Assembly: GCA_046704465.1 (NCBI GenBank)
Contig: JBJKRV010000097.1
Location: 1-41,832 of the forward strand
Direction of reading: 5' to 3'
Source of the DNA: Opitutaceae bacterium
GTDB lineage: Bacteria > Verrucomicrobiota > Verrucomicrobiia > Opitutales > Opitutaceae
DNA: 41,832 nt
This document shows, one piece after another, positions 3,727 to 40,087 of the stretch. A program made the position numbers and the translations under genes. The notes below the pieces were generated by a model that worked only from the letters and a program-made list of their open reading frames with translations, did not search any database and was not told where the DNA came from. The stretch's first letter is position 1. Every line of letters starts with the position of its first letter.

Positions 3727-4911
3727 ATGCAACGACAAACTCAGCATCTGATCGACATCGGACGCAAATATCCGGACGCCTGGCGCCGGCTGGATCAATT
3801 CCGCGCCGAGCGCGGGGAGACGCTCCCGCAATGGCCCGGATGGTGTCTCATGCCCATGGCCGGGTGGTATGCGATCGTATCCGGAGGGCGTGCCATCGCG
3901 GCGGGGAGCGAGGCCGTGGCAGACATCGGCCGCCTGGCCGGCCTCGGCGCATGGCGCTACTCGCAGTCCATCTATCGCTACGATCCGGAGCTCTACGCGC
4001 ACCTAGTGGCCACTCCGCTCGACGGGGATATGCCGGCGGAGGTGCTGCTGCGGCTCCCGGAGTGGGGTGTCTATGTGGAGACCCCGCACGGGGCTGCTCC
4101 CGAGCCGGAAATGCCTACAAATTATGGAGCGAATGGAGGCCTGCACGGCCAGTCAGCGGAATCGCTTCTTTGCGGGCGGGAACCTTTTTGTGATCTGGAA
4201 TCGGGAATAGGGCCTTTGCGAACGGGAACCTTTTCTCTTTGCGGGCGGGAACCTTTTTGTAATCCGGAATCGGGAATAGGGCCTTTGCGAACGGGAACCT
4301 TTTCTCTTTGCGGGCGGGAACCTTTTTGCATGCACGGCTTTTATGCGTCTCTGGAATGGGACGCAAATGATGGGCGAACGGAATTGCGTCTTTTGTTGGA
4401 CACAGAGACGGGGCTGCTTCCGGTCCCGTTACATATCGGGGATTGGCCGCTCACGGAAGCTATCGCGCGCGCCATCGATGAGGCGCTGCGGCGGCAAGAA
4501 AAAGAGGTCTTGCCGCCGTCGCCTCCGGCCGCCAACGCGGCCTTGGCGTTTGCACTTGCGCCGATCGTGAATCTGCTTCTTTATCTTTGCTCGGATTCTC
4601 CCGATTTCGGAGACGCGCGATCGACGAGACCGCAACGGCCCCGACCCAAGCGGGTGAAAGGCGGCTGGCGTCTGTTTCCTCCCCCGCGCCCGACACTGCG
4701 CCTGATCGGGGAAACAGTCGGAAGGGCCATACGCAATGTCGGCAAAGAAGAAATCGACCCCGGCGAAACCGATGCGCCCCGACCCGAGCGGAAATCCCCT
4801 CGCCCGCACCTGCGCCGGGCTCATTGGCACGGCTTCTGGCACGGGCCGAAGGAGGGACTTCGCCGGTTTCGGTACCGATGGATCCCCCCGACATTTGTTG
4901 CGAGTAGATAA
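3727..4911 (+). CDS. Hypothetical 394-aa protein with an internal 23-aa tandem repeat and a basic C-terminus (...RAHWHGFWHGP...)
   Basis: ATG 3727 follows the terminator and a G-rich Shine-Dalgarno sequence. I recognise no family. Confidence 0.6.
   Translation: MQRQTQHLIDIGRKYPDAWRRLDQFRAERGETLPQWPGWCLMPMAGWYAIVSGGRAIAAGSEAVADIGRLAGLGAWRYSQSIYRYDPELYAHLVATPLDGDMPAEVLLRLPEWGVYVETPHGAAPEPEMPTNYGANGGLHGQSAESLLCGREPFCDLESGIGPLRTGTFSLCGREPFCNPESGIGPLRTGTFSLCGREPFCMHGFYASLEWDANDGRTELRLLLDTETGLLPVPLHIGDWPLTEAIARAIDEALRRQEKEVLPPSPPAANAALAFALAPIVNLLLYLCSDSPDFGDARSTRPQRPRPKRVKGGWRLFPPPRPTLRLIGETVGRAIRNVGKEEIDPGETDAPRPERKSPRPHLRRAHWHGFWHGPKEGLRRFRYRWIPPTFVASR
4168..4328 (+). repeat. Tandem repeat, 2.3 copies of 69 bp, in frame (LCGREPFC-ESGIGPLRTGTFS)
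   Basis: Units start at 4168, 4237 and 4306. Each unit contains the sub-repeat TTTGCG-NNC-GGGAACCTTTT twice. Confidence 0.9.
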
Positions 4912-5050
4912 CTGAAAAAGCATGCTTTTCCCAAAACCGAGGACCTCGGCGGTCACGAGCCGGAGGCCTCGGTAATGGCCGTGGCCACCCATGCCTTGGC
5001 CTGCTGTCGATATGCCTGATAATCCGCATAGTCTTGTGCGCCGGCAGCGC

Positions 5051-5236
5051 TGAGGTCCTTGTTGTCTTTTTGTAATAGCGTTTGTTCGCAGCGACGATTA
5101 ACCGCAAAACCTTGTACATTTGGTCTTTGATGTCGGCCTCGAGCCCGAATTTTTCGGCTTTCGGAAACTGTCTCAATGCGACATATGTATAGGCTATCGT
5201 GTCAAGCATTTTCTGGTAAACGATCAGATTTTCCAT
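5051..5236 (-). pseudogene. avd: Truncated or disrupted DGR accessory variability determinant (Avd-like four-helix-bundle protein, N-terminal ~62 codons only)
   Basis: MENLIVYQKMLDTIAYTYVALRQFPKAEKFGLEADIKDQMYKVLRLIVAANKRYYKK resembles the first half of Avd / 23S-IVS family proteins. The remainder of track ORF 4460..5236 is antisense to CDS 3727..4911 and is not protein-like. Confidence 0.5.
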
Positions 5237-5244
5237 ATTTCACT

Positions 5245-5266
5245 GCGCCATGCTATCGCATGGCGC
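5245..5266 (-). promoter_or_regulatory. GC-rich hairpin (9-bp stem, 4-nt loop) just 3' of the fibre gene stop
   Basis: GCGCCATGC-TATC-GCATGGCGC on the + strand. On the coding strand the loop reads GATA. It lies 9 nt after stop 5275-5277. Confidence 0.55.
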
Positions 5267-5274
5267 CACAGATA

Positions 5275-6510
5275 TCAGGAGACGGATTGACGGATAGCCA
5301 AGGCGGAGCGCAACCCGACACTGCTATAGACATCGGAGGGCGAAATGCGGAAATTCGCAATCAGGCCAGTGCGGGCATAGGCACCACTGCTCCAGTACCC
5401 ACAGCGCTGAAGCGCACGACTATCGCCGTTTGAATAGGCATATGCAGAGTCGAGATAGGTCGAATAATTGGTCGATAGATCAGAAAAATCCGGCAATGCC
5501 AAATATTTTCCGGCGCTATCTTCCAATAGCTTTCCGATAGTCTTCCATGCCCCTACCCCTGAGGCCAGGCCCGTCTTGGATATAGATGAAATGTCCAGAG
5601 CAGTCTTTAACTGAATCTGACATCCATCCCCATGGTTGTAAATCATGCCAGCACTCAATTTCGCGACCCCTGCAAATCGGCCCATAGGCGAGACATAAGA
5701 TATCGTCACGTCTTCATCGCCGTTAACGGCATCGGTGATGCGGCATATTCCAGGGCTCAAATGGCATATATTGACGCCGTCGCCCAGCCCACCATCATCG
5801 TAATAGAGGTATGCATCCCCTGCAGCTCTGACACCATTCAGAAATGCTTTCGGCTGAAAAATACCCCCTTCCATGCGGCAATCTTCCCACTCAAAGATAT
5901 TGCCGACCAGATCCGCCAATCCAGCACCGGCAATACCATTACTCCACCAGCTCGCAGGCCCGGAGCCTGCCAGGCATCGTCCGGACACAGTGGCATCCAT
6001 AACTCCATAATTGCCCCAATTGTCGGCGTCACGTAGGTCTATGCCGTTGTTGTTGTTGCCCCTCACTTGGCCCCAATTGCCGGATTTTCTAATCCACGAC
6101 AAAATCCCGAATCGCTCAAACGGGGTCAGTAAATGGCAGGCCTCGCCATTGATCACCCGATTGCTCGCGGCGATCCGCGCCGACGGCCACGATATAGAGG
6201 TCCACGGCACGACTCCAGGGCGACAACACGCCGCAACCGTGCCGGGCGCATCTGGCGAAGTGCTCCCCATGCTCGCGGAACTCGCATCTGGCTGGCAGCT
6301 CTCGCAGACATCCACCCAGAAAGAAGGGATATTGATGCCATTATGCGCCGCCTGGGGCCAGCCGGATGTCACGAATTTTGGGATCATGGCCATGGTCGAT
6401 GTCACATCGACCCCGGACCCATCCGATTCGCTGTTATGGATGAAATCGCGCACCTCAAGCGATGCGCTCAAAATATCCTGGATCCCGCCCAAACTCAGAT
6501 CGATATCCAT
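5275..6510 (-). CDS. Receptor-binding tail fibre with an FGE-sulfatase / C-type-lectin-fold C-terminus (DGR target-like)
   Basis: Contains FWVDVCE...VPW..ISW, GNIFEWEDC and the C-terminus ALQRCGYWSSGAYARTGLIANFRISPSDVYSSVGLRSALA. ATG 6510 overlaps the upstream stop (TAATG). Confidence 0.7.
   Translation of the reverse strand: MDIDLSLGGIQDILSASLEVRDFIHNSESDGSGVDVTSTMAMIPKFVTSGWPQAAHNGINIPSFWVDVCESCQPDASSASMGSTSPDAPGTVAACCRPGVVPWTSISWPSARIAASNRVINGEACHLLTPFERFGILSWIRKSGNWGQVRGNNNNGIDLRDADNWGNYGVMDATVSGRCLAGSGPASWWSNGIAGAGLADLVGNIFEWEDCRMEGGIFQPKAFLNGVRAAGDAYLYYDDGGLGDGVNICHLSPGICRITDAVNGDEDVTISYVSPMGRFAGVAKLSAGMIYNHGDGCQIQLKTALDISSISKTGLASGVGAWKTIGKLLEDSAGKYLALPDFSDLSTNYSTYLDSAYAYSNGDSRALQRCGYWSSGAYARTGLIANFRISPSDVYSSVGLRSALAIRQSVS
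5278..5415 (-). other. Putative DGR variable region (VR)
   Basis: About 15 of 34 codons are NNY types (TAC, AGC, AGT, TAT, ACT, ATT, AAT, TTC, GAT, GTC...), as expected if they derive from diversified AAY codons. No template copy is available in the window to confirm this. Confidence 0.4.
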
Positions 6511-6824
6511 TATGCAATGCCTCCCAAATCCCATAATGTCAGATGCACATCATCGGCCGACAGCGGCACCATTTTCGGCACCGCCTCTTCCCCCTCAGCG
6601 CCGGCATCCGCAGATACCCATTGCGCCGCCGGGATCGCCACTTCGGCCACCAGCCAATACCCGGCGGCCTCAACCAAAGCGCCGTTTTCGTCCCGATAAA
6701 TCCGCATAACGCGAGGATCGCATGTCCGCACCGCGCTCAAATTAAACTCCTGTCTTGGGAACTCGCTAAACCCGAGAATCAGTGCATCCCCATCAACCCG
6801 AAAACTGGCATTTGCTTTAGCCAC
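6510..6824 (-). CDS. Hypothetical tail-module protein
   Basis: The ORF is translationally coupled to the fibre gene. I recognise no family. Confidence 0.55.
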   Translation of the reverse strand: MAKANASFRVDGDALILGFSEFPRQEFNLSAVRTCDPRVMRIYRDENGALVEAAGYWLVAEVAIPAAQWVSADAGAEGEEAVPKMVPLSADDVHLTLWDLGGIA

Positions 6825-6833
6825 TGCACCTCC

Positions 6834-7538
6834 TCAATATCCGACGCTCAGCGTCCATCCGAACGCCGTGCTCTGGTCGGACCCGCTGTTTTTGACGACG
6901 AATGCATTCGCCGCTTTGGCGACCGAAATGGTGCCGATATAATCGCTCTGCGCCTCCGGCATGATGGATACCTGGTAGTCAGTGGTGCCGACATCCGTGA
7001 TGGCCACCGTGACACCGCTGCTCCCGGCGAAAACACCGCTCCCACGCTGAAAATATTGGCTGAATTTGACCTTGGCAGCGGAAATTTCATCGGCCGGAAT
7101 CATGGCGTCGGTGACGCCCGTCACCGTGATATCGACCGTCCGCAAATCCCATACCGAGCTGGCGTCTATGTTCCCAGACCCGTCTGTTTGGAAACCTCCT
7201 ATTTGGCGCGACGTGGCCGCAGTCCATCCGGTAGGATATGTGGAATTTTTGGAGAGCATAAAAACAGGGACGGATCCGACCAGCGGGATACAGGCGTAAA
7301 TATAATAGGTAGCGGATGCATCAAATGCCGCTCCGCTATCCAGATCCGCAACACCGAGATCCGTGTCCTCGTCGACAATCAGCACGGCAGGTTCGACGAC
7401 CACGAAAAATTCCGCCCAAATGCGGAGGGTTTGGGCGGCCTGTTTGGACAAAAAATACTCTCGCGATGGGCCGCGCACCGTATAATCGCCCATTAGCGCA
7501 ATGGATCCACTCGTGTTGAAAAGGGTTTTATTTGCCAC
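6834..7538 (-). CDS. Hypothetical tail fibre / structural protein
   Basis: Position in the fibre module and a beta-rich sequence. Confidence 0.55.
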   Translation of the reverse strand: MANKTLFNTSGSIALMGDYTVRGPSREYFLSKQAAQTLRIWAEFFVVVEPAVLIVDEDTDLGVADLDSGAAFDASATYYIYACIPLVGSVPVFMLSKNSTYPTGWTAATSRQIGGFQTDGSGNIDASSVWDLRTVDITVTGVTDAMIPADEISAAKVKFSQYFQRGSGVFAGSSGVTVAITDVGTTDYQVSIMPEAQSDYIGTISVAKAANAFVVKNSGSDQSTAFGWTLSVGY

Positions 7539-7905
7539 GGATTACCTCCTCGTGTTTGCGCTCAAGCTCGGCGACCTCTGAGCGTAGGTCGACAACCGCC
7601 CTATGTGCTTTCCGATGGCTCAACATGGCCTCGTCCCAGGTGCGCCTGGCCTCTATAAGCCGCTGCCGCGCTTCCATCAATTGCCTCGCGACGGCCGCCG
7701 ATGCGTCTTCTTTTTCCGCGTCCAATTGTCGTGCCACGATCACATTATTCCGAAGGATCTGGAACTCCTGGGCCGTGATCTTGACACGCTTCAGATCCTT
7801 CTTTTTAAGCCCGTCCAAAAATTCGATGGCGCGGGCTGGCGGCAAATCCATGGCGAGATTATAAATATCCTCGCGGGTGCCGATCTCCCTTGGAATTCTG
7901 CGCAT
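7528..7905 (-). CDS. Coiled-coil hypothetical protein in the tail module
   Basis: The ORF has charged heptad-like segments. Confidence 0.55.
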   Translation of the reverse strand: MRRIPREIGTREDIYNLAMDLPPARAIEFLDGLKKKDLKRVKITAQEFQILRNNVIVARQLDAEKEDASAAVARQLMEARQRLIEARRTWDEAMLSHRKAHRAVVDLRSEVAELERKHEEVIRGK

Positions 7906-7914
7906 GTCCCCCCC

Positions 7915-8622
7915 TTAGTTTTTTAGCCAGCATACGAGCCATGATATATAGCCGCCGGTAGCCGCATTGATTTTGAACGGAACCACTCCGGACATGCCGG
8001 ATACATCCAGGTCTTGGCTATGAGTTCCGACATTGAAACCGGACATTAGCGTACCATTCAGATATAGGGAGCAATTGGTCCCTCCGTTGAAGAAGCTTAC
8101 CGACAGCGTCGATGCTCCATTCGGGACAAGAACATAGCAGTCGATGATGGTCCACGGGTTGGAGGTATCGGCATCCATCCGTTGTGTAATGGTCAATACC
8201 GGGACCATATCAGAAGCCAGCTTCGGCGCCGTCACCTTGCCGTCGCCAATCGTCAGCGCATTGGACCCCGTCACATCCCCCGTGTGAGAGGCATGCGAAA
8301 TCGTCCGGTCGGCACTCAGCGCACCGCCACCACTCAATCCGGTCCCGGCGTTTACCGAGATCTGGCTGCATTTGTCTGCGTCCTTGGCCCGACCGGTGAC
8401 CAGGTCTATAGCCGATAGCCACGCGTTATTTACGGTATTCCGCAGCTTGAATAGACTGTTTCCGGTATCGGACCATCCTTGCCCGGCAACCGGATTCGAC
8501 GGTTCCGAGGCTCCTGAGAACATCGATCGAAGCGTTTTGAGCATCAGCTCGATGTTGGTCATAATGAGATCGGCGGATTTTCCGACGGCCACATAAAGAC
8601 TGCTATCCCAATCCTGGCTCAT
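7915..8622 (-). CDS. Tail fibre protein
   Basis: The N-terminus ...PSNPVAGQGWSDTGNSLFKLRNTVNNAW is typical of phage fibre N-terminal domains. Confidence 0.6.
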   Translation of the reverse strand: MSQDWDSSLYVAVGKSADLIMTNIELMLKTLRSMFSGASEPSNPVAGQGWSDTGNSLFKLRNTVNNAWLSAIDLVTGRAKDADKCSQISVNAGTGLSGGGALSADRTISHASHTGDVTGSNALTIGDGKVTAPKLASDMVPVLTITQRMDADTSNPWTIIDCYVLVPNGASTLSVSFFNGGTNCSLYLNGTLMSGFNVGTHSQDLDVSGMSGVVPFKINAATGGYISWLVCWLKN

Positions 8623-8631
8623 GCCATCTCC

Positions 8632-11115
8632 CTATGCGATGCCGGTGTAGGCGCTCATGTTGAGCGCGAGGCAATAGAGGTTCGAATCAAGGGTCGGATC
8701 CGTCAGAGAGATCACGACATAGATATATCGCGCCTCGACCTCGGCCGCCTGGAGCGCGAAGTATTTCACTTCCGTGAAGTTGGTTCCGTCCGTTGAATAG
8801 AAGAGCGATGCCTTTAGCTGTCCGGCTCCGGTAGAGGCGAAAATCTCGGCGAAGGATCGATCGGCAGCGTCGACCGATGCAAAATCCGCCGGATCCGGCA
8901 GCACGCCTCCGAACGTTCCGGCCGAGCTGACAAAATCCGTGACGAAATCCCCCCAGACCCGCACCTTCTCGACCGCTCCCAAATCCCGCGTCGGGCTCGT
9001 CCATGTGCCTGTCAATACGCCGCTTGTATGGCTGCATTTTAGGGCATCGTCCGTGCCATAGAGGGCATATTCCGTGTTGCTGAAAGTTCCGATCCCGTTG
9101 AAATCCCAGGTCCAGGCATCAAGCGAAGAAAACCCCGGCGGAATGAATACGGTGGCCGTGGCGCTGACGGCCGTGCCATAGGTCCCGGAATTGTTCCGCG
9201 GCGCCACCCAAAACGTGTATGTCCCGGGATGCAGGCCGGCCAGGCGGATGTTGCAGCTCTTGTCATAGCTCAGGAAAATCCCGCCGTCCCAGGACGATCC
9301 GATCCGCGTCTCGTACCCGTCAATGTCCGGATCCGTCAGCGGCGTCGCAAATAGGCTCACCGAGTCCCCGTTCGCCACCGCCGCAAGGTCGCTAATGGAT
9401 CCCGGCGCAGAGATCCCGTCCTGTATGGTCCGGCTGACCGTGTGCGCCGAGTTGAAGTCCTGCTCGACGCCGTAGACGTTCACGCTCTGAATCTTGCAGT
9501 CGTAGGTCGCACCCTCCTGGACCGGATCGAGCTGATAATCCCCCTGGCTCGTGGTCTGGAATTTCCAGGCCCCGCCATTGATCCGGATCCAGATGTTCGC
9601 GTGCTTCCACCAGGGATAATCCGTGGCCGCCGGCGCCGAAAACCCGATGTTCCACCGCGTGAATGTCCGCCCCCGGTAGTCGTAGGATTCCTGCGCCTCG
9701 GTAACATTGATGACGCCGGCGACGGCTCCGGTCGGATCCGGCAGGGTGGTCTCGTATCGCGTCTTGGCCAGCGGGTTGTAGACCTGATCGTAAAGCTCGG
9801 CCTTTTCCTCGATCAGCGTCAGCGCCGTCAGATGCGTCGCCGGATCCAGGTCGACCTGGCCGACCCGGAAGGTCCTGGACGTCCAGCCCGGAATGTCATG
9901 GGTCAGCGTGACCAAATCGCTCACGTCCAGTTGAGCGCACCGGTCCCGGAAGCTTCCGGTCGCCTTATGCCCCCAACGCGCCCGCTCCAGGACATAGTCC
10001 GCCATCGGCTTGACCAGCGACAGGTCGTTCAGCCCCGGCAGATCGATCGACAGCTCGCGCTCGTCCTCTCCGCTCGTCACGGCGTCCGGATCCATGAGGC
10101 TGTATTGGTCTTTCACCCAGTTGAGTTCCGAGGAGTAGAATGTCGCGACGACCTTGTTCGGACGATCCTGCAACGTGGCCACGGGCTTGATCGACAGACT
10201 GCTCGTGTCCGACCCCCGGGCCACGTCGTCCATGGTCAGGTCCATTACCGTGTTTTCGTAGCCCAGGTCGTGGTATTTGATGAAGTATTTCGTCTGGCTG
10301 TAGATGATCTCGCCCCGGAAGCAATTCAGGATCGGCTGGATCGAGTCGGTGAACCCTTTGCCCAGGGTGATGGGCGCGTTGAAGGTCCAGCCCTTGGTGT
10401 TGCAATAGTCCCGGGCGGCGGCCACGCTGGCCACGTCGATGCGCTCGGTGGTCTGGGCCTCGTGCCATTTCCCGATCCCCATGCCGCCCCGCACGCTCGG
10501 CCGGGTCAACCGGTCGTAGAGCACCAGGGCGTCGTTCGGCGAAAAGAAGATGCTGTCGAGGTCCGGATCGTAGAGCAAAAGACCCTCCAGCCCGCAGGTC
10601 ACATCCGGAATCCCGAGCCACTTGTTGGAATCCCATTTCAGCCGAAGATAGAGGTACGCCGTATACTGGTAGCAATCCGTCCATTCCGGAATCGCCGCGT
10701 TGAGCGTCGCGCAAACGGTCTGGTCGGCCGTGCCGGTGAACAGCTCGTAATGGACGTAATCGCTCCCCCAGTCGGTCCACAACTTCCCGTCAAGAAACAG
10801 TTGATCCACCCCGTCGACCTGGTGCCATCCGTTGATCGGCCCCTCGCCGAGCGTATATATAAGGTGCACGTACTGGTTGTCGGACCCGGTCGTTCCGGCA
10901 TAGGCCCGGTTCCCGCCGACCCGGCAGTATCCGTAAAGCAATGGCTTTTTCGATCCCGTGGAACTCGTATTGACCAGGACCCCGAGCCCCTTGCTGGCCG
11001 CCGCGTCTTCTTGCGCCGCGTGCTCCTGCCGCTGTTGCTCGTAGCGGGCGACGATGTTGCTCAACACCAGCAACGCCACCAGCTTGATCAATCCGAGTAC
11101 CGTGAAAAACGCCAT
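8632..11115 (-). CDS. Host specificity / central tail protein (lambda J-like or GTA ORFg15-like)
   Basis: 827 aa, positioned after the DUF2163-like gene. It has an N-terminal transmembrane-like segment followed by LLYGYCRVGGN...YTLGEGPINGW. Confidence 0.8.
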   Translation of the reverse strand: MAFFTVLGLIKLVALLVLSNIVARYEQQRQEHAAQEDAAASKGLGVLVNTSSTGSKKPLLYGYCRVGGNRAYAGTTGSDNQYVHLIYTLGEGPINGWHQVDGVDQLFLDGKLWTDWGSDYVHYELFTGTADQTVCATLNAAIPEWTDCYQYTAYLYLRLKWDSNKWLGIPDVTCGLEGLLLYDPDLDSIFFSPNDALVLYDRLTRPSVRGGMGIGKWHEAQTTERIDVASVAAARDYCNTKGWTFNAPITLGKGFTDSIQPILNCFRGEIIYSQTKYFIKYHDLGYENTVMDLTMDDVARGSDTSSLSIKPVATLQDRPNKVVATFYSSELNWVKDQYSLMDPDAVTSGEDERELSIDLPGLNDLSLVKPMADYVLERARWGHKATGSFRDRCAQLDVSDLVTLTHDIPGWTSRTFRVGQVDLDPATHLTALTLIEEKAELYDQVYNPLAKTRYETTLPDPTGAVAGVINVTEAQESYDYRGRTFTRWNIGFSAPAATDYPWWKHANIWIRINGGAWKFQTTSQGDYQLDPVQEGATYDCKIQSVNVYGVEQDFNSAHTVSRTIQDGISAPGSISDLAAVANGDSVSLFATPLTDPDIDGYETRIGSSWDGGIFLSYDKSCNIRLAGLHPGTYTFWVAPRNNSGTYGTAVSATATVFIPPGFSSLDAWTWDFNGIGTFSNTEYALYGTDDALKCSHTSGVLTGTWTSPTRDLGAVEKVRVWGDFVTDFVSSAGTFGGVLPDPADFASVDAADRSFAEIFASTGAGQLKASLFYSTDGTNFTEVKYFALQAAEVEARYIYVVISLTDPTLDSNLYCLALNMSAYTGIA

Positions 11116-12306: not shown

Positions 12307-15024
12307 CTACGTCCTTGACCGAATGGTATGCCGAAGACTGCCGTTGTCCTTGATGTTCTGCCCGACGGCCCCGATCATCGCGGAATGCACCGGGCCGCCG
12401 TTGGCGATGTCGCTTGCCACCGCGCCGATAATGATGTCCACGTCGCCGTTGGGATATGTCTGCTTCGAAACCGGGCCGCCGCTGTAATTGAAGACGTTCA
12501 CCGTCGATCCCCCGCCGGAAAGCGCAGACGCGACGCCCGCCGCCTGGCCTTCCGTCAAAACGACTTCCTTCCGCTTCAGGATCGCAGCGATCTCGTCGTT
12601 CCCGAGCCCGGTGTGATATCGTGGGGCTCCGAAGTAGAGCGAGGCCGGAACGTTCCGGGTAAATGCCCAGTCGCTCCCGGCCACGCCGCCCCCGTGCATC
12701 CCGAAGGCAGTGGTCATGCCGGATCCGAGCTCGATCGGCGACCCGATGTTCATCCCGCTCCCGAACAATCCGGTGATCCAGTCCCCGATCGAACCCGTCG
12801 CCTGCCCGAGCACCCCGCCGCCGAGCGATGACTTCCCGCCGTTCGCCCCGCCGAAAAGCCATTCCTTGGTCATTTGCCCGAGCGAGTCCGACGCCGCCCT
12901 GGCGATGGTATTGAATATCCCGACGACATAATCCCCGAACGTCTTAAACTTGTTCGTCATGACGTCGAAGTAAAAGTTGCTGAAATTCTGCTCCATCGCT
13001 TTGGCCGTCCGCCTGCTGAACTGCTGCATGGCGAGGTCCGATTCCTGGCTCTTTTGTACCAACAGATCCAGGGATCTGGATTGCACGGCGTCCCGGTCCC
13101 GTGCCTCGATGAGCCAGGAATCCGTGTAACCCTTGTTGTCGTCCTCCAGGGACTTGATCCTCGACTTATCCAGCTTGACCTGGATATCCGAAGCCGCTTT
13201 GTCCTTCGCCACCAACAGATCCAGGGATCTGGATTGCACGGCGTCCCGGTCCCGGGCCTCGATGAGCCAGGAATCCGTGTAACCCTTGTTGTCGTCCTCC
13301 AGGGACTTGATCCTCGACTTATTCAGCTTGACCTGGATATCCGAAGCCGCCTTGTCCTTCGCCACCAAGATATCAACGGTCCGAGACTGGACGTTGTAGT
13401 AATCGTCGGCCTGGACCTGCCAGATATCCTTCAGCTTCTTCCCGCGCGCGATGGCGGCCTTGATTGCGGGGTCGCTTGAGATGTCGAGGGGTGGAGGATT
13501 CGGCTCATATGTCGTCCCCGACGGCACCGCCATGGTCATGCCCGGGTTTGCCTCCGGGGTTTCGTTATATAAATTCGGCTTGGGGGCCGTCGCCTGGTTA
13601 AGCCTGTCGAACACGGTCCAGGCCGTTGAAAAAGGCCCGCTCGCACCCCTCGCGGCGACCTTCCCGAGCCAACTCGTAATGCCGAGAAGCCAATCCCCAT
13701 TGGTCTGAGGCGCCAAGTCTTTGATGCTCTGGGCCAGGCCGTTGATGCGGTCCATGGTCGAGCCGAGCGCCCCGGACTCCATGGCTCCCCCGATTCGGAC
13801 GATCGAGTTGGCGATGTTCGTCAGAACCCCGGCGGTCGTCTTGAGCCGCTCCGTGTCGCGTAAAAACTTCTGGTTCCACTGGATCGTATGGGTCTTCTGG
13901 TCGATCGTGGCCACGCTATCCAGGATCGATTTCAGGTCGGTCTTGACCGTCTCGAAAATGGGTTCCGAGACCGTCCCCGAGGTCTGCTTCCAGAGATCGA
14001 TAAAATTGCTTAAAATGCCGTTCCAGGTATTCTGCGTAGCAACCCCGGCATCGGAAAAGGCGGAGAGCCGGTTCATCAAAAAATCGAACAGGCCCTGGGC
14101 GTCGTCCTTATACTTCGCGATGTCGGAGTTTCTGAGCCCCAGCACCGTGGCGATCCGGCTCGTACGGGGGTTGATGGCGCCCGTGAGGAGGGATCGCGTC
14201 TCCTCTCCCATCTGATCCATGGGCAGCCCGATGGCTCCCGCCGCCTGCACCATCGCCGTGTTGAATTTCATGACCTGGTCGGTATTGAACCCCCGCGCGA
14301 GCGCCACGGGGAGCGCCTCCTGGTAGCTCCGGATCATCTGATCCAGGGTCGCTATGGTCTTGAAATTCTCGCCCTGCAGCTCTTTCGACGCACTCACGGC
14401 ATAGGCCTGCGCGGTCTGGAATGCCTTCAGCCCGGTCAACGTTTTCCCGGTGAATTGGTCGACGTATTTCCCGTTCGAGAGATACGCCGCAGCAATGCCG
14501 ACCTGTGCCGTCTCGATAGTGGATTGGTACTTGAAGACCAGGTCGTTCATGAGCTGGAAGGCTTCGACCGTGGCGAAGCGAAGCACAATGAATTTTCCTG
14601 CGATGGCGGTCAGCGATCCGCTCAACCCGGAGAACCCGCTTGTTCCGGATTTGGCCGCTTCCTGAAGCTTTCCGCCGGTATTCTTGGCCTCGGCCCCGAG
14701 CGCAGCGAGTTTTTCCTTGGCGCTTTTCTGCGCGGCGGCGATGTCCCGGGCCGATGCCGTTCCGGAATTTTTGATCTCGTTGAATGCGGCGATGACCTTG
14801 TCGCGCTCTGCGGAGATGTCGAGCGAACTCCGGATATCGAGGGTACGGAAGGCTTCCTTGAGTTTATCCACAGGGGCCTTCATACGCTCCAGGCTGGCAG
14901 AGGCCTTGTCTGCCATCTGCTGGACCCCGGCCGCGATCTGCTTCGTGTTGGCGATGATCTGCGCAAACGCCGCCTCGCTGCGGTTCATCATCTCGACGGT
15001 GATGTTGACCTGGTTCTCGCTCAT
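12307..15024 (-). CDS. Tail tape measure protein
   Basis: 905 aa, helical and Gly-rich, positioned downstream of the chaperone gene. Confidence 0.9.
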   Translation of the reverse strand: MSENQVNITVEMMNRSEAAFAQIIANTKQIAAGVQQMADKASASLERMKAPVDKLKEAFRTLDIRSSLDISAERDKVIAAFNEIKNSGTASARDIAAAQKSAKEKLAALGAEAKNTGGKLQEAAKSGTSGFSGLSGSLTAIAGKFIVLRFATVEAFQLMNDLVFKYQSTIETAQVGIAAAYLSNGKYVDQFTGKTLTGLKAFQTAQAYAVSASKELQGENFKTIATLDQMIRSYQEALPVALARGFNTDQVMKFNTAMVQAAGAIGLPMDQMGEETRSLLTGAINPRTSRIATVLGLRNSDIAKYKDDAQGLFDFLMNRLSAFSDAGVATQNTWNGILSNFIDLWKQTSGTVSEPIFETVKTDLKSILDSVATIDQKTHTIQWNQKFLRDTERLKTTAGVLTNIANSIVRIGGAMESGALGSTMDRINGLAQSIKDLAPQTNGDWLLGITSWLGKVAARGASGPFSTAWTVFDRLNQATAPKPNLYNETPEANPGMTMAVPSGTTYEPNPPPLDISSDPAIKAAIARGKKLKDIWQVQADDYYNVQSRTVDILVAKDKAASDIQVKLNKSRIKSLEDDNKGYTDSWLIEARDRDAVQSRSLDLLVAKDKAASDIQVKLDKSRIKSLEDDNKGYTDSWLIEARDRDAVQSRSLDLLVQKSQESDLAMQQFSRRTAKAMEQNFSNFYFDVMTNKFKTFGDYVVGIFNTIARAASDSLGQMTKEWLFGGANGGKSSLGGGVLGQATGSIGDWITGLFGSGMNIGSPIELGSGMTTAFGMHGGGVAGSDWAFTRNVPASLYFGAPRYHTGLGNDEIAAILKRKEVVLTEGQAAGVASALSGGGSTVNVFNYSGGPVSKQTYPNGDVDIIIGAVASDIANGGPVHSAMIGAVGQNIKDNGSLRHTIRSRT
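13058..13368. repeat. 153-bp (51-aa) tandem duplication inside the tape measure gene
   Basis: Copies lie at 13058-13210 and 13211-13363. I see 3 mismatches between them. Confidence 0.9.
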
Positions 15025-18955: not shown

Positions 18956-18992
18956 GTCCGCGTCAGTTCGTGTCAGTCCGCGAAAGTCCGTA
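18956..18992 (+). repeat. Phased GTCCR array B (four units, 10-bp spacing)
   Basis: GTCCGCG at 18956, GTTCGTG at 18966, GTCCGCG at 18976 and GTCCGTA at 18986. The 26-nt core 18966-18991 matches 27449-27474 at 24 of 26 positions. Confidence 0.8.
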
Positions 18993-27448: not shown

Positions 27449-27485
27449 GTTCGTGTTAGTCCGTGAAAGTCCGTGACCGTCCGTG
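27449..27485 (+). repeat. Phased GTCCR array A (four units, 10-bp spacing)
   Basis: GTTCGTG at 27449, and GTCCGTG at 27459, 27469 and 27479. The array lies between the holin stop and the next start codon. Confidence 0.8.
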
Positions 27486-31789: not shown

Positions 31790-32716
31790 ATGCCACGAAA
31801 GACCGACCCCACCACCGAAGCCGCCCTGGAAGTCGTTCGAATGGAACAGGCCTTGGAGTCAAAGGCCATGAACGACCAGGCCGAGAGGGAGCGCCTGATC
31901 GCTGAATGCCACCAGGTGATCGGGCGCGTTCAGGCCAATCAGCTCATGGCGAAATTCGGCAACGTTGCCAGTTTGGTCTACCTGAAGCAAGTCAAGGATT
32001 CCAAGATTTACAAGGACCTTCCGGGCATCGGAACATGGGATTTGTTCTGTGAATCCATCGGGTTGGCTCGGCGCACGGTAGACGAGGACCTCCTGAACCT
32101 GTCGACCTTCGGTGAGGATTTTTTGGAAACGTGTTGCCAATTACAAGTCGGCTACCGTGACCTCAAAAAGCTCCGGAAGATCACCCACGAAGGCACCGCC
32201 ATCGCCACCGAAGAAGGCCTCGTCATCGGTGACGAGATCGTTCCCTATGACGACAAGGAAGAATTCCAGGCCGCCATCGAGCGCCTTCTGGAAGAAAGAG
32301 ACCGCCAGCTCGAAGACGCCAAGGCCAGCCTCCGGGCCAACGAAAAGGTCCTGAAATCCAAGGCCGACCTCCTCAAGAAGCAGGAAAAGGCCCTGGCCCG
32401 CTTCGAGCAACAGGCCGAAGCCAAGGGCCTCACCCCCGAGGAAGACGCCTTCGTCCAGAAATGCGAGAACGCCCGAATCACCATCGATGGTTTTCTGAAC
32501 CAATTCGACCCGGACATCAACCCGCTCCCCGATGACGCAACGGAACGCATGAAAAACGCAATCATGCACACCCTGTCTTGGTTCAAACGCTGCATCCTTA
32601 CCAGCTTCGATACCGCCGCCGATCTCTACGGCCTGCCGGACATGGACGACGGCGGCGGTTGGACCCCTCCGCACCTCCAAGACACCGAACCGGACTCAAC
32701 GTCCATCGAGGAATAA
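31790..32716 (+). CDS. Hypothetical coiled-coil early protein
   Basis: A GGAGG Shine-Dalgarno sequence lies upstream. 308 aa, upstream of the transposase. Confidence 0.6.
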   Translation: MPRKTDPTTEAALEVVRMEQALESKAMNDQAERERLIAECHQVIGRVQANQLMAKFGNVASLVYLKQVKDSKIYKDLPGIGTWDLFCESIGLARRTVDEDLLNLSTFGEDFLETCCQLQVGYRDLKKLRKITHEGTAIATEEGLVIGDEIVPYDDKEEFQAAIERLLEERDRQLEDAKASLRANEKVLKSKADLLKKQEKALARFEQQAEAKGLTPEEDAFVQKCENARITIDGFLNQFDPDINPLPDDATERMKNAIMHTLSWFKRCILTSFDTAADLYGLPDMDDGGGWTPPHLQDTEPDSTSIEE

Positions 32717-32719
32717 GCC

Positions 32720-34402
32720 ATGGATTGGGCTCAAACCATGACCGACCGACTGTCCCGGGCCGTGAACGGCGAAAAGGACAGGATCATTGCCGAATACCGG
32801 GCCATGACCGGCAAAAGTGCGGCGACCCTTTATCGGATCGCGAAGCAGCACGGGTTCGATTCGGGCCGCAAGCCACGGGAAGACAAGGGCTGCCTGCGCT
32901 GCGGCATCTCCGAGGATGTCCTGCAATTCATATCCGCGCTGATCTCCGAGACGCGCCGCCAGGTCAAGGGCACGATCCTTCCGCTGTCCGAGGCCATGGA
33001 GATCGCCATCGACAACGGCGTGATCGAGCGCGGCCAGATATCGGAAGCGCGCCTTCAGGCCATACTCCGGGAGCGAGAGATGAACAGCACCGCCCTGAAC
33101 GCCGAAGACCCGTCCATCCGCATGGCGAGCCTTCACCCGAACCACGTTCACGTCTTCGACGCTTCGATCTGCATCCAATACTACCTCAAAAATTGCCGTG
33201 GCCTTGCCATTATGGATGAGCGGGATTTCCGGGAGAAAAAGCCGAAGAACTTCGAAAAGATCAAGCGCCGCATCTTCAGGCTCATTCTCGCTGATCATTT
33301 CAGCCATTTTTTGTTCGTCAAATATTTTGAAACAACTGGTGAAAACCAGCTCATGACCTACGATTTTCTGACCTCGGCATGGCACGCCAAGGATCACGAA
33401 AAATGCCCGTTCCGGGGGGTGCCGAAGTTCTTGTTGATGGACGCCGGATCCGCGAACATCGCCAAGGGCATCATGGGCTTGCTCGGACGTCTTGACGTCG
33501 AATTGCCCAAAAACATGCCCCACAACCCGAAACGGCAGGGCTCGGCGGAAGAGGCGCAAAACCTCATCGAAACCCACTTCGAAGCCCGCCTGCGCCTGCA
33601 ACCCGCCACCACGATCGAGGAGCTGAACGCGTGGTGCGAAGACTGGCTGATCTGGTGGAACGGAACCCGGAAGCATCGCCGCCACCGGATGACCCGCACC
33701 GCATGCTGGTTGACCATCACCCAGGAACAGCTCCGCGACCTCCCCTCCGACGACATCCTCCGCGACCTCTATGCCGAGCCCGAGGTCGAGCGCACCGTCC
33801 GGCAGGACAACAGTATTTCATTTCGCGGGGAAGAGTACCGCGTCAAACATATCGCCGGGATCCGGCCGGGCCGGAAGGTCCGCGTCATCCTCCGGCCGTA
33901 CGACTGGCCGGCCGTCGGCATCGTCTACGGCGAAGACGAATACATCGTTCAGCCCATCGGCAAGATGGCCGGCGGGTTTGCCGCAGACGCCGCGATCATC
34001 GGCCAGGAATACAAGTCCAACCCGGACACGCCGGTCATGAAGGTCAAGAAGGCGAACGAAAACTTGGCCTTCGGAACCGAGCGGAAAAAGGACGATGCCC
34101 CGTTCGGCGAGACCCTGCAAGTCTTCGGTCACCAGGCCGAAAAAGTCCAATCCATCCCCATGCCGCGCCGAGGAACCCCGATGCCGATCGGCCGGGATAT
34201 CGCCGCCATCTCCATCTCGATCATGGAGTTGTTCAAGCGCCTGCGCGACGCCGGCGTTCAGCTCACGCCGACCCTTAACGCGGACCTCCGCGCATCCCTC
34301 GGGGACAGCGTCTCCGCCGGCCGAGCCGACGAGATCGTGACCGCCCTGGTCGACGGACAAGACTGGCATGGGACCGACAACAACCTCGAAGCCGTCATGT
34401 AG
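32720..34402 (+). CDS. Mu-type DDE transposase (A protein)
   Basis: The rve-like core has VFDASIC, LLMDAGSANIA and RQGSAEEAQ, with DD35E-type spacing. An N-terminal HTH is present. Confidence 0.9.
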   Translation: MDWAQTMTDRLSRAVNGEKDRIIAEYRAMTGKSAATLYRIAKQHGFDSGRKPREDKGCLRCGISEDVLQFISALISETRRQVKGTILPLSEAMEIAIDNGVIERGQISEARLQAILREREMNSTALNAEDPSIRMASLHPNHVHVFDASICIQYYLKNCRGLAIMDERDFREKKPKNFEKIKRRIFRLILADHFSHFLFVKYFETTGENQLMTYDFLTSAWHAKDHEKCPFRGVPKFLLMDAGSANIAKGIMGLLGRLDVELPKNMPHNPKRQGSAEEAQNLIETHFEARLRLQPATTIEELNAWCEDWLIWWNGTRKHRRHRMTRTACWLTITQEQLRDLPSDDILRDLYAEPEVERTVRQDNSISFRGEEYRVKHIAGIRPGRKVRVILRPYDWPAVGIVYGEDEYIVQPIGKMAGGFAADAAIIGQEYKSNPDTPVMKVKKANENLAFGTERKKDDAPFGETLQVFGHQAEKVQSIPMPRRGTPMPIGRDIAAISISIMELFKRLRDAGVQLTPTLNADLRASLGDSVSAGRADEIVTALVDGQDWHGTDNNLEAVM

Positions 34403-34410
34403 GAGGACAC

Positions 34411-35649
34411 ATGGCTGCCAAAATCTACGCACAGGATCACGCCCCGATCATCCTCCGAGAGTTGACCCAACGCTGCGGAATCAGCCAATCGGACCTTGCG
34501 TTCGTCCTCGGGAGAAAGCTCGGCCGGAGCATATCCAAGGCCCTGGTCAATTTGGCCGTGAACAAAGGCTATCTGCCGCCGAGCATCCCCGAATTCAAAG
34601 CGGCCGTCGAATCGTTCATCGCAAGGAACGAATGCACGTCGGCCTGGCTGAATGACAACGGTCTGGGTGTGAAAGACATCTGGGAGGAAACGAACAACGC
34701 GGTCAAGGGGAAGCTGCCCGAAGGCTGCCGTGACAAAAGACGATCGCCGGCGATCAAGGCCGACGACCCGGAAATCACTACACCCTGGGAGGTAGAGATG
34801 ATTACACCCGACGCTTTAAAACATTTCCATCTGTTCCGCAACCCCTTCATCGATGACATCCAGAAGGATTCCGACGTCTATATGTCGGATGAGCATCGCT
34901 ACATCGAGGCCGCCATGCTGGACGCCTCGAAGCACGGCGGATTCATCGCCGTGATCGGAGAAGTGGGAAGCGGTAAATCCGTGATGCGCCGCAAGGTCGT
35001 CGAGAAGCTGAAAAAAGACGGAGACGTCCTGGTCATCTATCCGCAGATGATCGACAAGACCCGGTTGACCGCATCGAGCATCTGCGATGCCATCATCCAG
35101 GACATCAGCAACGAGAAATGCCGGTCGAAGCTCGAAGACAAGACCCGACAGGTGCAGCGTCTCTTGATGGATCGGGCAAAGAGCGGCTACCGGCACGTCC
35201 TGATCGTAGAGGAAGCCCACGACCTGCGCATCCAGACTTTGAAATACCTAAAACGCTTCTACGAGCTGGAGGACGGCTACCGGAAGCTCCTGGGGATCAT
35301 CCTGATCGGCCAAAGCGAATTGAAGCACACCTTCGACGAAGGCCAGAATATCGACATGCGCGAAGTGATCCGCCGCGTCCAGGTCGCCGAGATCCGGGGC
35401 CTAAACGGCAACCTCAAGGCCTACCTGTCCCTTAAGTTCCACCGTATAGGCAAGGATATCGCCGATATCTTCGACGATTCCGCATTCACCGCATTGAGCA
35501 ACCGTCTCACCAGCACCGCCAAGGACGGCAAGGCTAAAGTGTCCCATGCCTACCCGTTGCTCGTGAACAACTACGCCGCCCGGGCCATGAACACGGCCCA
35601 CGAACTCGGAGAAACCAAAATCACCGCCGACGTCATCGACGCGATGTAA
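34411..35649 (+). CDS. Transposition ATPase (B protein, AAA+)
   Basis: Walker A is GEVGSGKSV and Walker B is VLIVEEAHDL. An AGGAGG Shine-Dalgarno sequence lies upstream. Confidence 0.9.
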   Translation: MAAKIYAQDHAPIILRELTQRCGISQSDLAFVLGRKLGRSISKALVNLAVNKGYLPPSIPEFKAAVESFIARNECTSAWLNDNGLGVKDIWEETNNAVKGKLPEGCRDKRRSPAIKADDPEITTPWEVEMITPDALKHFHLFRNPFIDDIQKDSDVYMSDEHRYIEAAMLDASKHGGFIAVIGEVGSGKSVMRRKVVEKLKKDGDVLVIYPQMIDKTRLTASSICDAIIQDISNEKCRSKLEDKTRQVQRLLMDRAKSGYRHVLIVEEAHDLRIQTLKYLKRFYELEDGYRKLLGIILIGQSELKHTFDEGQNIDMREVIRRVQVAEIRGLNGNLKAYLSLKFHRIGKDIADIFDDSAFTALSNRLTSTAKDGKAKVSHAYPLLVNNYAARAMNTAHELGETKITADVIDAM

Positions 35650-35683
35650 TCGCCACCAAGTCCATAAAAGGAGCAAAACAACC

Positions 35684-36136
35684 ATGACCACCGCCACAAC
35701 CACCGCCCTCGCCAACCCCATCGGATTCCGCTTCATCCAGTCCAACGGATTCGTCAAGGAAATGGATACCTGCCCCGTCTGCGGAGAAATCTGGTTCATA
35801 AACGAAGGCTTTAACTATCCGGAACCCATCAGAGAACAACTCAACGCCGTCTGCGACAAGTGCGATCGCATCGCCCAGAACCTCATACCCGACAAGATCC
35901 TGTCCACTCTCTGCCGCGGAGGCGAAATCGAAACCTATGAAAACCTCGTCCACGCCGCCGTCGGCCACGTCCGCCTGGAAACCCTCGTACAGAAAACATA
36001 CGACGCCTGCCAATCACTCATCATGGACCCGTTAATGGACGCCTGCGACGTAAGGGAAATCATCCAGGCCTTCGGCGAGTTCTGCGCCGGCCTCAACATC
36101 CGGGCCATCACCATCAAATTCGACCAGGCCGAGTAG
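35684..36136 (+). CDS. Hypothetical protein with CxxC...CxxC
   Basis: An AAGGAG Shine-Dalgarno sequence lies upstream. Confidence 0.55.
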   Translation: MTTATTTALANPIGFRFIQSNGFVKEMDTCPVCGEIWFINEGFNYPEPIREQLNAVCDKCDRIAQNLIPDKILSTLCRGGEIETYENLVHAAVGHVRLETLVQKTYDACQSLIMDPLMDACDVREIIQAFGEFCAGLNIRAITIKFDQAE

Positions 36137-36141
36137 CCCGA

Positions 36142-36174
36142 GTCCGCTTCGTCCACAACGTCCACCCTGTCCAT
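36142..36174 (+). repeat. GTCCR array E (four units, 9-bp spacing)
   Basis: GTCCGC at 36142, GTCCAC at 36151 and 36160, and GTCCAT at 36169. The array lies just upstream of the Shine-Dalgarno sequence of ORF 36190. Confidence 0.75.
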
Positions 36175-36189
36175 AAAGGAGCCCGCAAA

Positions 36190-36642
36190 ATGGCAACCAC
36201 ACCAACAATAAAAATGAAAGTCACGACCGGCGAAAACCCAATGCATGAAATCCTCATCTCCGCTACCGAAGCCTCAACCGAAATGAACAATTTTCTCTAT
36301 CTTTTCGGCAGGAGGACCAATAGCCGCTTCATCACCGACAGGCTCGACAAAATCAAACAACTCGCCCGCAAGGAACTCGGCTCCTCACATCAAAAAGTCG
36401 CCCTCATTGCGAGCATCACCAAATCACCAAAAGAGCACCAGACGGCCAAGCATCGTGTCCTCAACGGTTATTGGTCCGACATCGAAGACCTCATCGCCGA
36501 TCTCATGCCGCGCCTCATGGACATCGTCCAGAACGGCGCCACCGACGAAAAGCTCACCGAAACCCTTCTCCAGGGCGAAACCCTTACCGCCAGGATCCAG
36601 TCGTTCCTGGCCGTCAAAGACCTCGCAGGAAAAAAGGAGTAA
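36190..36642 (+). CDS. Hypothetical early protein
   Basis: An AAGGAG Shine-Dalgarno sequence lies upstream. Confidence 0.55.
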   Translation: MATTPTIKMKVTTGENPMHEILISATEASTEMNNFLYLFGRRTNSRFITDRLDKIKQLARKELGSSHQKVALIASITKSPKEHQTAKHRVLNGYWSDIEDLIADLMPRLMDIVQNGATDEKLTETLLQGETLTARIQSFLAVKDLAGKKE

Positions 36643-36645
36643 TCC

Positions 36646-37170
36646 ATGACCACCAAACGCACGAAACCGGTCACCATTCAACCCATCAAAGACCTCACCG
36701 AGGCAAACGACGCACTGGCCGAGATCGCCTCGGTGAAACGCCGCCTTTCCGAGATCGACATCGACATGAACGAAGCCATCGATCACGTGAAGGCCTCGGC
36801 CGACCAGCTCGCTGCCCCGCACCAGCTCCGGCTCAAGGAGCTGGAAAACGGGCTCACGGCCTTTGCCGAGCGGAATCAGTCGAAGCTCTTTTCGAAGAAG
36901 AAAAGCGTCGAGGTGGCCTTCGGCACCATCGGATACCGCAAATCCACCGAGGTTAAGCCCAAGCCGAAATTCAAATGGTCCGTGATCCTCGAAAACATCA
37001 AGAAATACGGCTTCACCACGGCGATCCGCACTAAGGAAGAGCCTAACAAGGACGAGCTGCACTCCTGGCCTCTGGAGCGTCTTGACCTTATTGGCGCCCG
37101 TCTCGTGACCAAGGAAGCATTTTGGTATGAGATCAACGAATCCGAAGTCGCCAGACAGTCGAAGGCGTAA
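36646..37170 (+). CDS. gam: Host-nuclease inhibitor Gam
   Basis: Length and pattern match Mu Gam-like proteins (LTEANDALAEIASVKRRLSEIDIDMNEAIDHVKA...KKKSVEVAFGTIGYRKS). Confidence 0.8.
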   Translation: MTTKRTKPVTIQPIKDLTEANDALAEIASVKRRLSEIDIDMNEAIDHVKASADQLAAPHQLRLKELENGLTAFAERNQSKLFSKKKSVEVAFGTIGYRKSTEVKPKPKFKWSVILENIKKYGFTTAIRTKEEPNKDELHSWPLERLDLIGARLVTKEAFWYEINESEVARQSKA

Positions 37171-37174
37171 CCCC

Positions 37175-37378
37175 ATGCCGAAACTCAATCACATATGGTT
37201 ATGTCGGGAATGTGAAGAGGTATTCCCGATGCCCCAAGGCCAGGTCCCGAGCCTATGCCCGTGTTGCATGCAACTCAAAGCCTACCCGCTCGTGGCCTGG
37301 CTCCGAATCATCGCCGGAGACGTCTTCATCCGAACCCCGGAAACCACCTGCACGATTCACCCGGATGGAAAGGAATAA
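37175..37378 (+). CDS. Small zinc-ribbon protein
   Basis: The start is the internal ATG at 37175. The Cys pairs are CRECEEVF...CPCC. Confidence 0.5.
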   Translation: MPKLNHIWLCRECEEVFPMPQGQVPSLCPCCMQLKAYPLVAWLRIIAGDVFIRTPETTCTIHPDGKE

Positions 37379-37383
37379 CGCAA

Positions 37384-37635
37384 ATGATCACCGAACAAAA
37401 AGTTCTATCCCTGGTCCCCACCGACAAGCTGCTTCACTTTTTCGCCGGCGGATTCATTGCCGGCGCCGTCGGTGGCTTGTGGGGCCTGCTCGTGGCGATC
37501 ATCATTGGAGCGGCCAAAGAGGTCATCGACCCATATTGGGGCGGAACGCGCGATCCGCTCGACTTCGCCGCCACCGCCGCCGGCGCCGTCGTCGTATTTG
37601 CCGTCCATCTGTTCATTGCCTGGTTGTTCATGTGA
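37384..37635 (+). CDS. Small membrane protein
   Basis: The internal ATG at 37384 is preceded by GGAAAGGA. Two or three hydrophobic segments are present. Confidence 0.55.
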   Translation: MITEQKVLSLVPTDKLLHFFAGGFIAGAVGGLWGLLVAIIIGAAKEVIDPYWGGTRDPLDFAATAAGAVVVFAVHLFIAWLFM

Positions 37636-37696
37636 CCCAACATCATTGGATGGGGTTCGGTCTGCCTGATTGAGCGACCGAACCCTTGGGAGTGAG

Positions 37697-37879: not shown

Positions 37880-37892
37880 GGAGACATCCCCG

Positions 37893-38809: not shown

Positions 38810-38811
38810 CG

Positions 38812-39459: not shown

Positions 39460-39579
39460 CAAGGGATTCTATGGACGGAATCCGTCCTGATAATACCTCA
39501 AAATGCGGTGTTATCGAGAATGTAACAAATGTGACAGACTTTGGATCTTGCCGATTTTTGTCTGCCAAGCAATCAGGTC

Positions 39580-40083: not shown

Positions 40084-40087
40084 TTCG

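Follow-up and report, generated by a model that had tools for sequence, protein, structure and literature searches.

A 41,832-nucleotide contig assigned to an Opitutaceae bacterium (JBJKRV010000097.1 of assembly GCA_046704465.1, positions 1 to 41,832; the whole of this stretch is called the window here) carries, at the end of a prophage tail-fibre module, what we interpret with good confidence as a stump left by a diversity-generating retroelement (DGR). The element probably lost the second half of its gene avd, its reverse transcriptase (RT) and its template repeat (TR) in one event, a deletion or an illegitimate recombination, so that the variable region (VR) of the target gene would now be a fixed allele. 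An initial annotation made from the sequence alone had described a decayed or orphaned DGR at this locus, with a VR-like gene end, a hairpin, a broken avd and neither TR nor RT, and all five elements were recovered, each at or within a few bases of where it had been placed.

The target gene and its variable region

The target gene (5275..6510, minus strand) begins with ATG at 6510 (MDIDLSLGGIQ), the start used in the collection gene call and in all homologues, ends with TGA at 5277-5275 and encodes a 411-amino-acid protein of predicted tail-fibre or receptor-binding type. Its assignment draws on the open reading frame (ORF), homologues, a structure model with its Foldseek matches, a family profile and synteny with an intact metagenomic relative, locus L001. 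Direct Pfam and NCBIfam scans of the protein returned no family, so the assignment of its C-type-lectin (CLec)/FGE-like fold rests on structure and transitive homology. A profile of the target family (28 homologues) matched TaqVP (PDB 5VF4), the DGR variable protein of Thermus aquaticus (PMC6328139), at E = 1e-9 over residues 120-220. An AlphaFold (AF2) model computed from an alignment of 99 homologues reached a predicted local distance difference test score (pLDDT) of 92.8 and a predicted template-modelling (TM) score (pTM) of 0.92; this run alone supplied the model, a 28-sequence run having reached pLDDT 48 and been set aside. Foldseek searches with the model returned TaqVP chains as the sole strong PDB matches (E = 1e-12, TM 0.50-0.57) and Mtd of phage BPP-1 among the weaker ones (E ~1e-2), which places the target nearer to TaqVP than to Mtd. 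Five of ten distant relatives found with the family profile reached the Pfam FGE-sulfatase gathering score, and a protein scan of genome contigs gave distant relatives alone, at no more than 34% identity. The modelled structure and these homologies identify the protein, at the level of prediction, as a DGR variable protein with a C-terminal VR in a CLec/FGE-type fold, and the FGE/C-type-lectin-type end proposed earlier for the last fibre gene is borne out by the top structural match to TaqVP and by the FGE-sulfatase matches of the distant relatives.

The VR spans 5299..5418 on the minus strand (residues 365-404, roughly the last 40 codons) and was delimited by alignment to the L001 TR, which extends across 5418-5299, by hypervariable columns and by codon usage. 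When all columns of the target protein are ranked by variability among the 99 homologues, 12 of the top 30 fall in residues 368-397 (positions 368, 372, 374, 375, 378, 386, 388, 389, 393, 395, 396 and 397; entropy 3.0-3.8 bits), interleaved with the near-invariant residues R369, G371, W373, A379, R380, G382, L383, P391, G399, F400 and R401. The window gene uses NNY codons (Y, pyrimidine) at 11 of the 12 hypervariable positions; NNY codons make up 75% of residues 365-404 versus 56% of the remaining target gene, and A content is 11.7% in the VR versus 21.8% across the remainder, in keeping with the NNY-rich fibre C-terminus noticed at the outset. The 3' end of the window VR reads GCCTTG, which is VR-type: the VRs of relatives are alike and their TRs have GACTCG or GACTTG. 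Differences between the window VR and the TRs of relatives lie mostly at TR AAY codons. On these patterns, together with the model, the last ~40 codons of the target gene are a genuine DGR VR.

Intact relatives supply the reference for what is missing. In L001 (ERZ27250894 k141_47525), which is syntenic with the window upstream (the same 825-amino-acid, mtd_2nd and small-ORF genes), the order is mtd_2nd, small ORF, target, hairpin, avd (111 amino acids), a TR of ~120 nt rich in AAC/AAT codons and RT (353 amino acids, Pfam RVT_1), and eight more loci (L005, L006, L007, L088, L090, L093, L098 and L110) have the series target-hairpin-avd-RT. Four ungapped TR/VR alignments place most mismatches at TR adenines (15/16 in L007, 15/16 in L088, 17/20 in L006 and 16/20 in L110), and the non-adenine mismatches lie mostly at the extreme 3' end, where VRs have GCCGCCTTG and TRs GCCGACTCG. 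The window has gene order, tail-module synteny and the GCGATAGC hairpin core in common with the intact metagenomic relatives (L001, L006, L007, L088, L090, L093, L098 and L110), their targets being 54-61% and their Avd N-termini 69-78% identical to those of the window; unlike the window, these relatives keep an avd of 107-111 amino acids, a ~120-nt TR with AAY codons and an RT of 331-353 amino acids.

A conserved target-site hairpin

Eight nucleotides past the target stop codon starts a hairpin (5245..5266, minus strand), recognised by its fold, its relatives and its covariation, with a GC-rich 9-bp stem (arms 5245-5253 and 5258-5266, 9/9 pairs perfect) and a 4-nt loop (5254-5257) that reads GATA on the sense strand. 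As single-stranded DNA it has a folding free energy of -13 kcal/mol (z = -4.2; 0/200 shuffles as stable), which upholds the perfect 9-bp stem and 4-nt loop described initially; the spacer given there as 9 nt is 8 nt. Across ten distinct loci the core GC-G[A/G]TA-GC is invariant, and the outer stem varies yet stays paired (the stem sequences are GCGCCATGC, GGCCTGC, TGCATCGC, TGTGCGC, TGCCTGC and GCCCCGT). Over these ten loci, 82% of cells in the 9-pair structure pair versus 62.5 ± 3.8% in shuffles, double-side changes occupy 20 cells versus 9.7 ± 2.0 (0/500 shuffles as high), and sliding the partner by 1 to 3 columns drops pairing to 26-54%. The target-site hairpins of BPP-1 and other phage DGRs have a GC-rich stem of 7-10 bp and a 4-nt GRNA loop on the sense strand (Guo et al. 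2011, PMC3240598); their distance from the VR is variable, and stem structure, not sequence, is needed for retrohoming (PMC3240598). The window hairpin agrees with these published rules in stem length and GRNA loop and, judged from its conservation, appears to be a conserved functional element.

The avd stump and its junction

Downstream of the hairpin, an Avd-like ORF starts at 5236 with MENLIVYQKMLDTIAYTYVALRQFPKAEKFGLEADIKDQMYKVLRLIVAANKRYYKKTT. Its codons 1-59 (5060..5236, minus strand), which correspond to helices 1-2 of the four-helix bundle, form an avd stump with an intact start codon and no stops, identified by Pfam, NCBIfam and alignment with L001, L003, L005 and L006. Pfam bAvd (PF22296) is covered over positions 1-55 of 107 (E = 3e-11, 44.1 bits, cut-off 40) and NCBIfam DivGenRetAVD (NF033474) over positions 1-55 of 104 (E = 1e-12, 48 bits, below the full-length cut-off of 80). 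A full-length Avd (~105-130 amino acids, whole profile) is absent: matches end at profile position 55, and the residues after 59 are unrelated in every frame. The Avd-like nature of this ORF, recognised initially from sequence appearance, is confirmed by both hidden Markov models (HMMs) on 5051..5236, and its Avd-like extent, first put at ~62 residues, is revised to 59. Intact Avds share 67-97% identity with one another and 69-78% with the stump, inside which no decay is visible; beyond the stump, the ORF continues for 200 Arg/Pro-rich codons, antisense through the neighbouring gene.

Alignment with relatives places the junction, that is, the end of avd homology and the breakpoint of a deletion or illegitimate recombination, at 5057..5060, as DNA similarity to intact avd ends at 5060 or at most 3 bases further. 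Nine intact Avds continue KK[T/N]T[L/M/I]Q[D/E][L/M]D[I/V].HE.LRRQ; the window has KKTT and then RTSALPAHK, and a search of all other reading frames past the junction found no Avd continuation. The initial annotation was right that avd is broken and misplaced the break at the A5 run after KRYYKK: because homology runs on through KKTT to 5060 and no frame resumes Avd, the break is a junction and not a frameshift. The AAAAAG before the junction, with the following ACNAC, belongs to the normal avd of relatives, in which the zero frame runs on. A frameshift at the A-run was also considered and rejected, the 38-codon -1 frame (DNKDLSAAGAQDYADYQAYRQQAKAWVATAITEASGS, then a stop) leaving the Avd HMM match within position 55-58 and having no homologue. 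On these alignments the avd break is, in our assessment, a recombination or deletion junction at ~5057-5060.

That the short Avd-like ORF is itself functional, as a two-helix Avd variant or by a programmed -1 frameshift at C AAA AAG within a working non-canonical element, strikes us as highly implausible. The intact start codon and the lack of internal stops would fit such an element, as would the slippery-looking AAAAAG and a -1 frame that stays open for 38 codons before a stop and a terminator-like hairpin, but that continuation adds no Avd HMM match past 55-58, its peptide is without a homologue, the same AAAAAG and ACNAC lie in the zero frame of the relatives' normal avd and, with neither TR nor RT, Avd would have nothing to act on.

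TR and RT are absent from the window

A repeat search of the 41.8 kb found no partner for 5275-5430. Short-word blastn of the window with the window VR, the L001 TR and the L001 post-TR sequence gave chance matches alone; in positive controls, L001 and L090 each yielded their TR to the same blastn, at 89-92% identity. Both strands were also scanned in an adenine-tolerant way, and the top score, 101/150, fell in an A-rich stretch with only 47 true matches (background 65 ± 7). With two DGR RTs from close relatives as queries, no tblastn match in the window fell below E = 0.1; in other loci, the L001 RT as query picks up RTs that are 35-68% identical to it. The C-terminal half of Avd is found nowhere in the 41.8 kb. 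Two earlier negatives, that the window holds no second VR copy and no RT, are thus upheld by the repeat search, the controlled blastn and the adenine-tolerant scan for the former and by tblastn for the latter.

These results are most readily accommodated by an ancestor with a standard cassette (target with C-terminal VR, hairpin, avd, TR and RT), as still intact in relatives. The loss of the TR, the RT and the second half of avd would go back to one event, a deletion or an illegitimate recombination, whose proximal end is at ~5057-5060 in avd codon 60 and which would have placed the stump next to 145 bp of unrelated sequence, with a convergent AcrVA2-like gene directly beyond. What is left is the receptor-binding gene with its VR and VR-type 3' end, the hairpin that marks a DGR target and 59 avd codons, the VR having presumably been diversified already through earlier adenine mutagenesis. 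As there would be no TR RNA, RT or complete Avd pentamer, no cDNA would be made in cis, and the fibre tip would be a fixed allele evolving via ordinary mutation and recombination alone. We infer that one event caused the loss and that the window VR is most likely frozen at present.

Recurrent truncation in related loci

Loss of the diversifier recurs in this tail-fibre family, at least five relatives having independent cuts at other avd codons. The hairpin is kept and avd is cut after ~104 amino acids in L003/L004 (8.7 kb downstream without RT), after 35 in L085 (no RT; 8 kb downstream), after 18 in L120 (no RT), after ~3 in L115 (no RT) and at the start codon in L124 and L126 (no RT). L012 has lost the VR end and the hairpin, with ~12 avd codons left, and in L009, L011/L102, L100, L092, L094, L099 and others different genes directly follow the target. 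Where the contig reaches far enough downstream to judge, about nine loci are intact and about a dozen are not, a tally that is rough because some contigs are duplicated across collections and DGR repeats can mis-assemble. Three further features of these loci were recorded. A gene starting MTIIKTKDNV comes after the stump or bare target in six loci. A further, identical VR-like 3' fragment occurs ~390 nt downstream in both L124 (430-1050) and L126 (340-960); these two loci and L096 come from Ga0222680, Ga0222683 and Ga0075115. In L002 (2540-2730) the VR joins directly to sequence that is post-TR in L001, with avd, hairpin and TR missing and RT present, an arrangement produced either by deletion through VR/TR recombination or by a collapse of the repeat during assembly.

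The relatives also bear on whether the window junction is a metagenome assembly chimera, in which case the real phage would have an intact avd-TR-RT and the 5' half of avd would have been misjoined to a contig with the AcrVA2-like gene. DGR loci contain repeats and assemble badly, as illustrated by L002, where the VR runs into post-TR sequence, and by L096 and L124, which have near-identical gene bodies and different downstream sequence; moreover, each window protein is known from this one contig alone. We nevertheless consider a chimera very unlikely. The avd sequence at the junction is unique and some 240 nt away from the VR, outside the VR/TR repeat where collapses occur, and a VR/TR collapse is therefore no explanation for the junction; independent assemblies of different samples (L003, L085, L115, L120, L124 and L126) contain similar cuts, likewise in unique avd sequence but at other positions; and what follows the junction, a convergent accessory gene and then DegV and GT2 genes of host-like character, makes sense as the end of a prophage.

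A frozen variable region or servicing in trans

An orphan VR could still be diversified in trans, the other alternative of the initial annotation, with a DGR of the host chromosome or of a co-resident or co-infecting phage supplying RT, Avd and a compatible TR RNA, and the cDNA homing to the window VR via the kept 3' VR end and hairpin. All cis target signals known to be needed are intact in the window (the VR-type 3' end, the 9-bp stem and the GRNA loop), and the intact L093 and the truncated L120 both come from sample series Ga0307928. L094 and L099, which have no adjacent avd or RT, are identical upstream and only 78% identical in their VRs, a second pair of this kind being L124 and L126, described below. 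We regard servicing of the window VR in trans as unlikely, given that neither TR nor RT is present across the 41.8 kb and that orphan VRs can match their nearest kin exactly: the VR of truncated L115 equals that of intact L001, and those of the orphans L011 and L100 are identical, which is consistent with frozen VRs. A degenerate VR/TR pattern had 0 matches in the genome and viral contig collections, a result of little weight as the source contig is not among them.

Deletion with a frozen VR is, in our view, the likelier account of the window, and several observations nevertheless weigh against it. L124 and L126 agree in their deletion junction and have identical flanking sequence; their VRs, by contrast, are only 75.5% identical, a hint that orphans of this family can still undergo change in the VR. 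The differences between these two include third-codon positions and so did not come from one common TR; they may instead reflect recombination or mixed-population assembly. No other hairpin of the family is as perfect as that of the window, and conservation of the avd stump equals that of intact Avds, so either the loss is recent or constraint still acts on hairpin and stump. Only one assembly (a cluster of 1 contig) shows the junction and, with a single contig at hand, TR and RT may sit elsewhere in the genome or in a co-resident phage. Finally, the sequence immediately past the junction, 4912-5056, has no match, which leaves both deletion and replacement standing. A broader proposal, prompted by the L124/L126 pair, that orphan VRs of this family are still rewritten in trans by DGRs of co-resident relatives, possibly from heterologous TRs, seems to us quite unlikely as well; if true, a phage without its own RT would still borrow hypermutation, and the VR 3' end and hairpin would be kept for that reason.

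Sequence beyond the junction and prophage context

Between the junction and the convergent gene lies an unmatched 145-bp spacer (4912..5056), for which tblastn and blastn against 186 fetched loci and a protein database search found no homologue. Its minus strand has an open frame ending in AKAWVATAITEASGS before a stop codon, followed by a GC hairpin (4937-4949) and then TTTT (4933-4936); by inference only, the segment may have belonged to a minus-strand gene since lost, as its 3' end and terminator. The convergent gene itself (3727..4911, plus strand, 394 amino acids) is putatively AcrVA2-like and not part of the DGR. Its product matches phrog_6160 (E = 2e-47) and, in precomputed annotation, Pfam PF26125, local Pfam and NCBIfam scans returning no family, and it has 300+ homologues, some named 'AcrVA2 family anti-CRISPR protein' by NCBI. 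It marks what now stands in the former TR/RT place, its anti-CRISPR role being putative. Two homologues (P0101 and P0131) are on contigs with unrelated contexts, and a viral-contig scan with the protein found no relative. Within the gene, 4167-4328 is an in-frame 69-bp tandem repeat (2.3 copies, 97% identical, sub-unit ~23 nt) that encodes ...SLCGREPFC.ESGIGPLRTGTF...; homologues are 300-350 amino acids long, most covering ~48% of the query, and the repeat may be a gene-specific insertion.

Simple insertion of an AcrVA2-like cassette into avd was considered and rejected, there being no avd C-terminal half, TR or RT on the far side; the event was accordingly a deletion or a replacement. Past the AcrVA2-like gene come ~1.7 kb that could not be annotated and then GC-rich DegV/FakA-like and GT2 genes resembling host flank. 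The initial annotation had offered replacement of TR and RT by a low-GC left-end cassette; replacement as such still stands, and the GC contrast invoked for it is weak because the target/avd module is itself ~51% GC. More widely, 5001-9000 (target/avd and adjacent tail-fibre genes) is 51-57% GC versus 59-66% for most of the phage (9001-27000), which suggests a lower-GC relative as the source of the fibre/DGR module.

The contig is a Mu-like prophage, with GemA (40834-41388), an AAA_22 (MuB-like) ATPase (34411-35649) and a capsid gene on the minus-strand late arm, and this late arm ends in the tail-fibre module and the DGR stump. The tail-fibre module upstream of the target (6510..7538, minus strand), in the same gene order as in intact L001, consists of a 234-amino-acid protein with an Mtd second domain (6834-7538, minus strand; PF21916 mtd_2nd, E = 3e-16) and a 104-amino-acid protein (6510-6824, minus strand). 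The early arm (31790-41388, plus strand) is divergent from the late arm and includes a PAPS-reductase-domain gene (37970-38809); a 560-amino-acid ORF in the transposase position has no Pfam match. Searches of the window found no known RNA (Rfam) and no tRNA, and the contig ends have no terminal overlap.

Several repeats lie elsewhere in the prophage. In the tail region, the 905-amino-acid ORF 12307-15024 contains at 13058-13423 (minus strand) a 153-bp tandem duplication (2.0 copies at 98%, 2.4 at 87%), which could represent a length variant of the tape measure. Arrays of a ~10-nt unit (GTCCGYGWNA-like) at 18956-18991 and 27449-27484, 8.5 kb apart and with a common 26-mer 92% identical, are candidates for repeated regulatory or binding sites. 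The early region has a 59-nt direct repeat (39590-39648 and 39782-39840, 97% identical, 192 nt apart).

Relation to known DGRs and significance

The window locus has much in common with the prototype DGR of BPP-1 (mtd-avd-TR-brt): a target that closes the tail module, a C-terminal VR in a C-type-lectin-type fold, avd directly downstream and a GC-rich hairpin with a 4-nt GRNA loop after the VR (PMC3240598), and a protein with the second domain of Mtd adjoins the window target. Unlike BPP-1, the window is without the second half of avd, TR and RT, and mutagenic retrohoming in cis would not occur. TaqVP, the best profile and structural match of the target, is likewise a DGR variable protein on a CLec/FGE-like scaffold (identity ~18-19%), but it belongs to a complete bacterial DGR, whereas the window target is a phage tail component whose DGR is truncated. 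DGR surveys, that of Wu et al. 2018 among them, reportedly describe remote and multiple targets, in which a VR with recognition signals away from the RT is still serviced. In such remote-target DGRs, TR and RT are demonstrably in the same genome; in the window, the avd stump implies a cassette that was once local and was then cut.

The locus is thus a decayed remnant of a known, BPP-1-type DGR, and the recurrent, differently placed avd cuts in its relatives are useful but unsurprising. DGR surveys start from the reverse transcriptase, and targets without an RT therefore go uncounted. For annotation, the lesson is that an Avd match and a CLec-type VR do not imply an active DGR. In theory, DGR function is lost under stable selection or conditions (bioRxiv 10.64898/2026.02.18.706561). 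A series of avd cuts in which the receptor-binding gene, the VR and often the hairpin are kept bears on when phages drop hypermutation, and on whether orphan targets can be serviced in trans.

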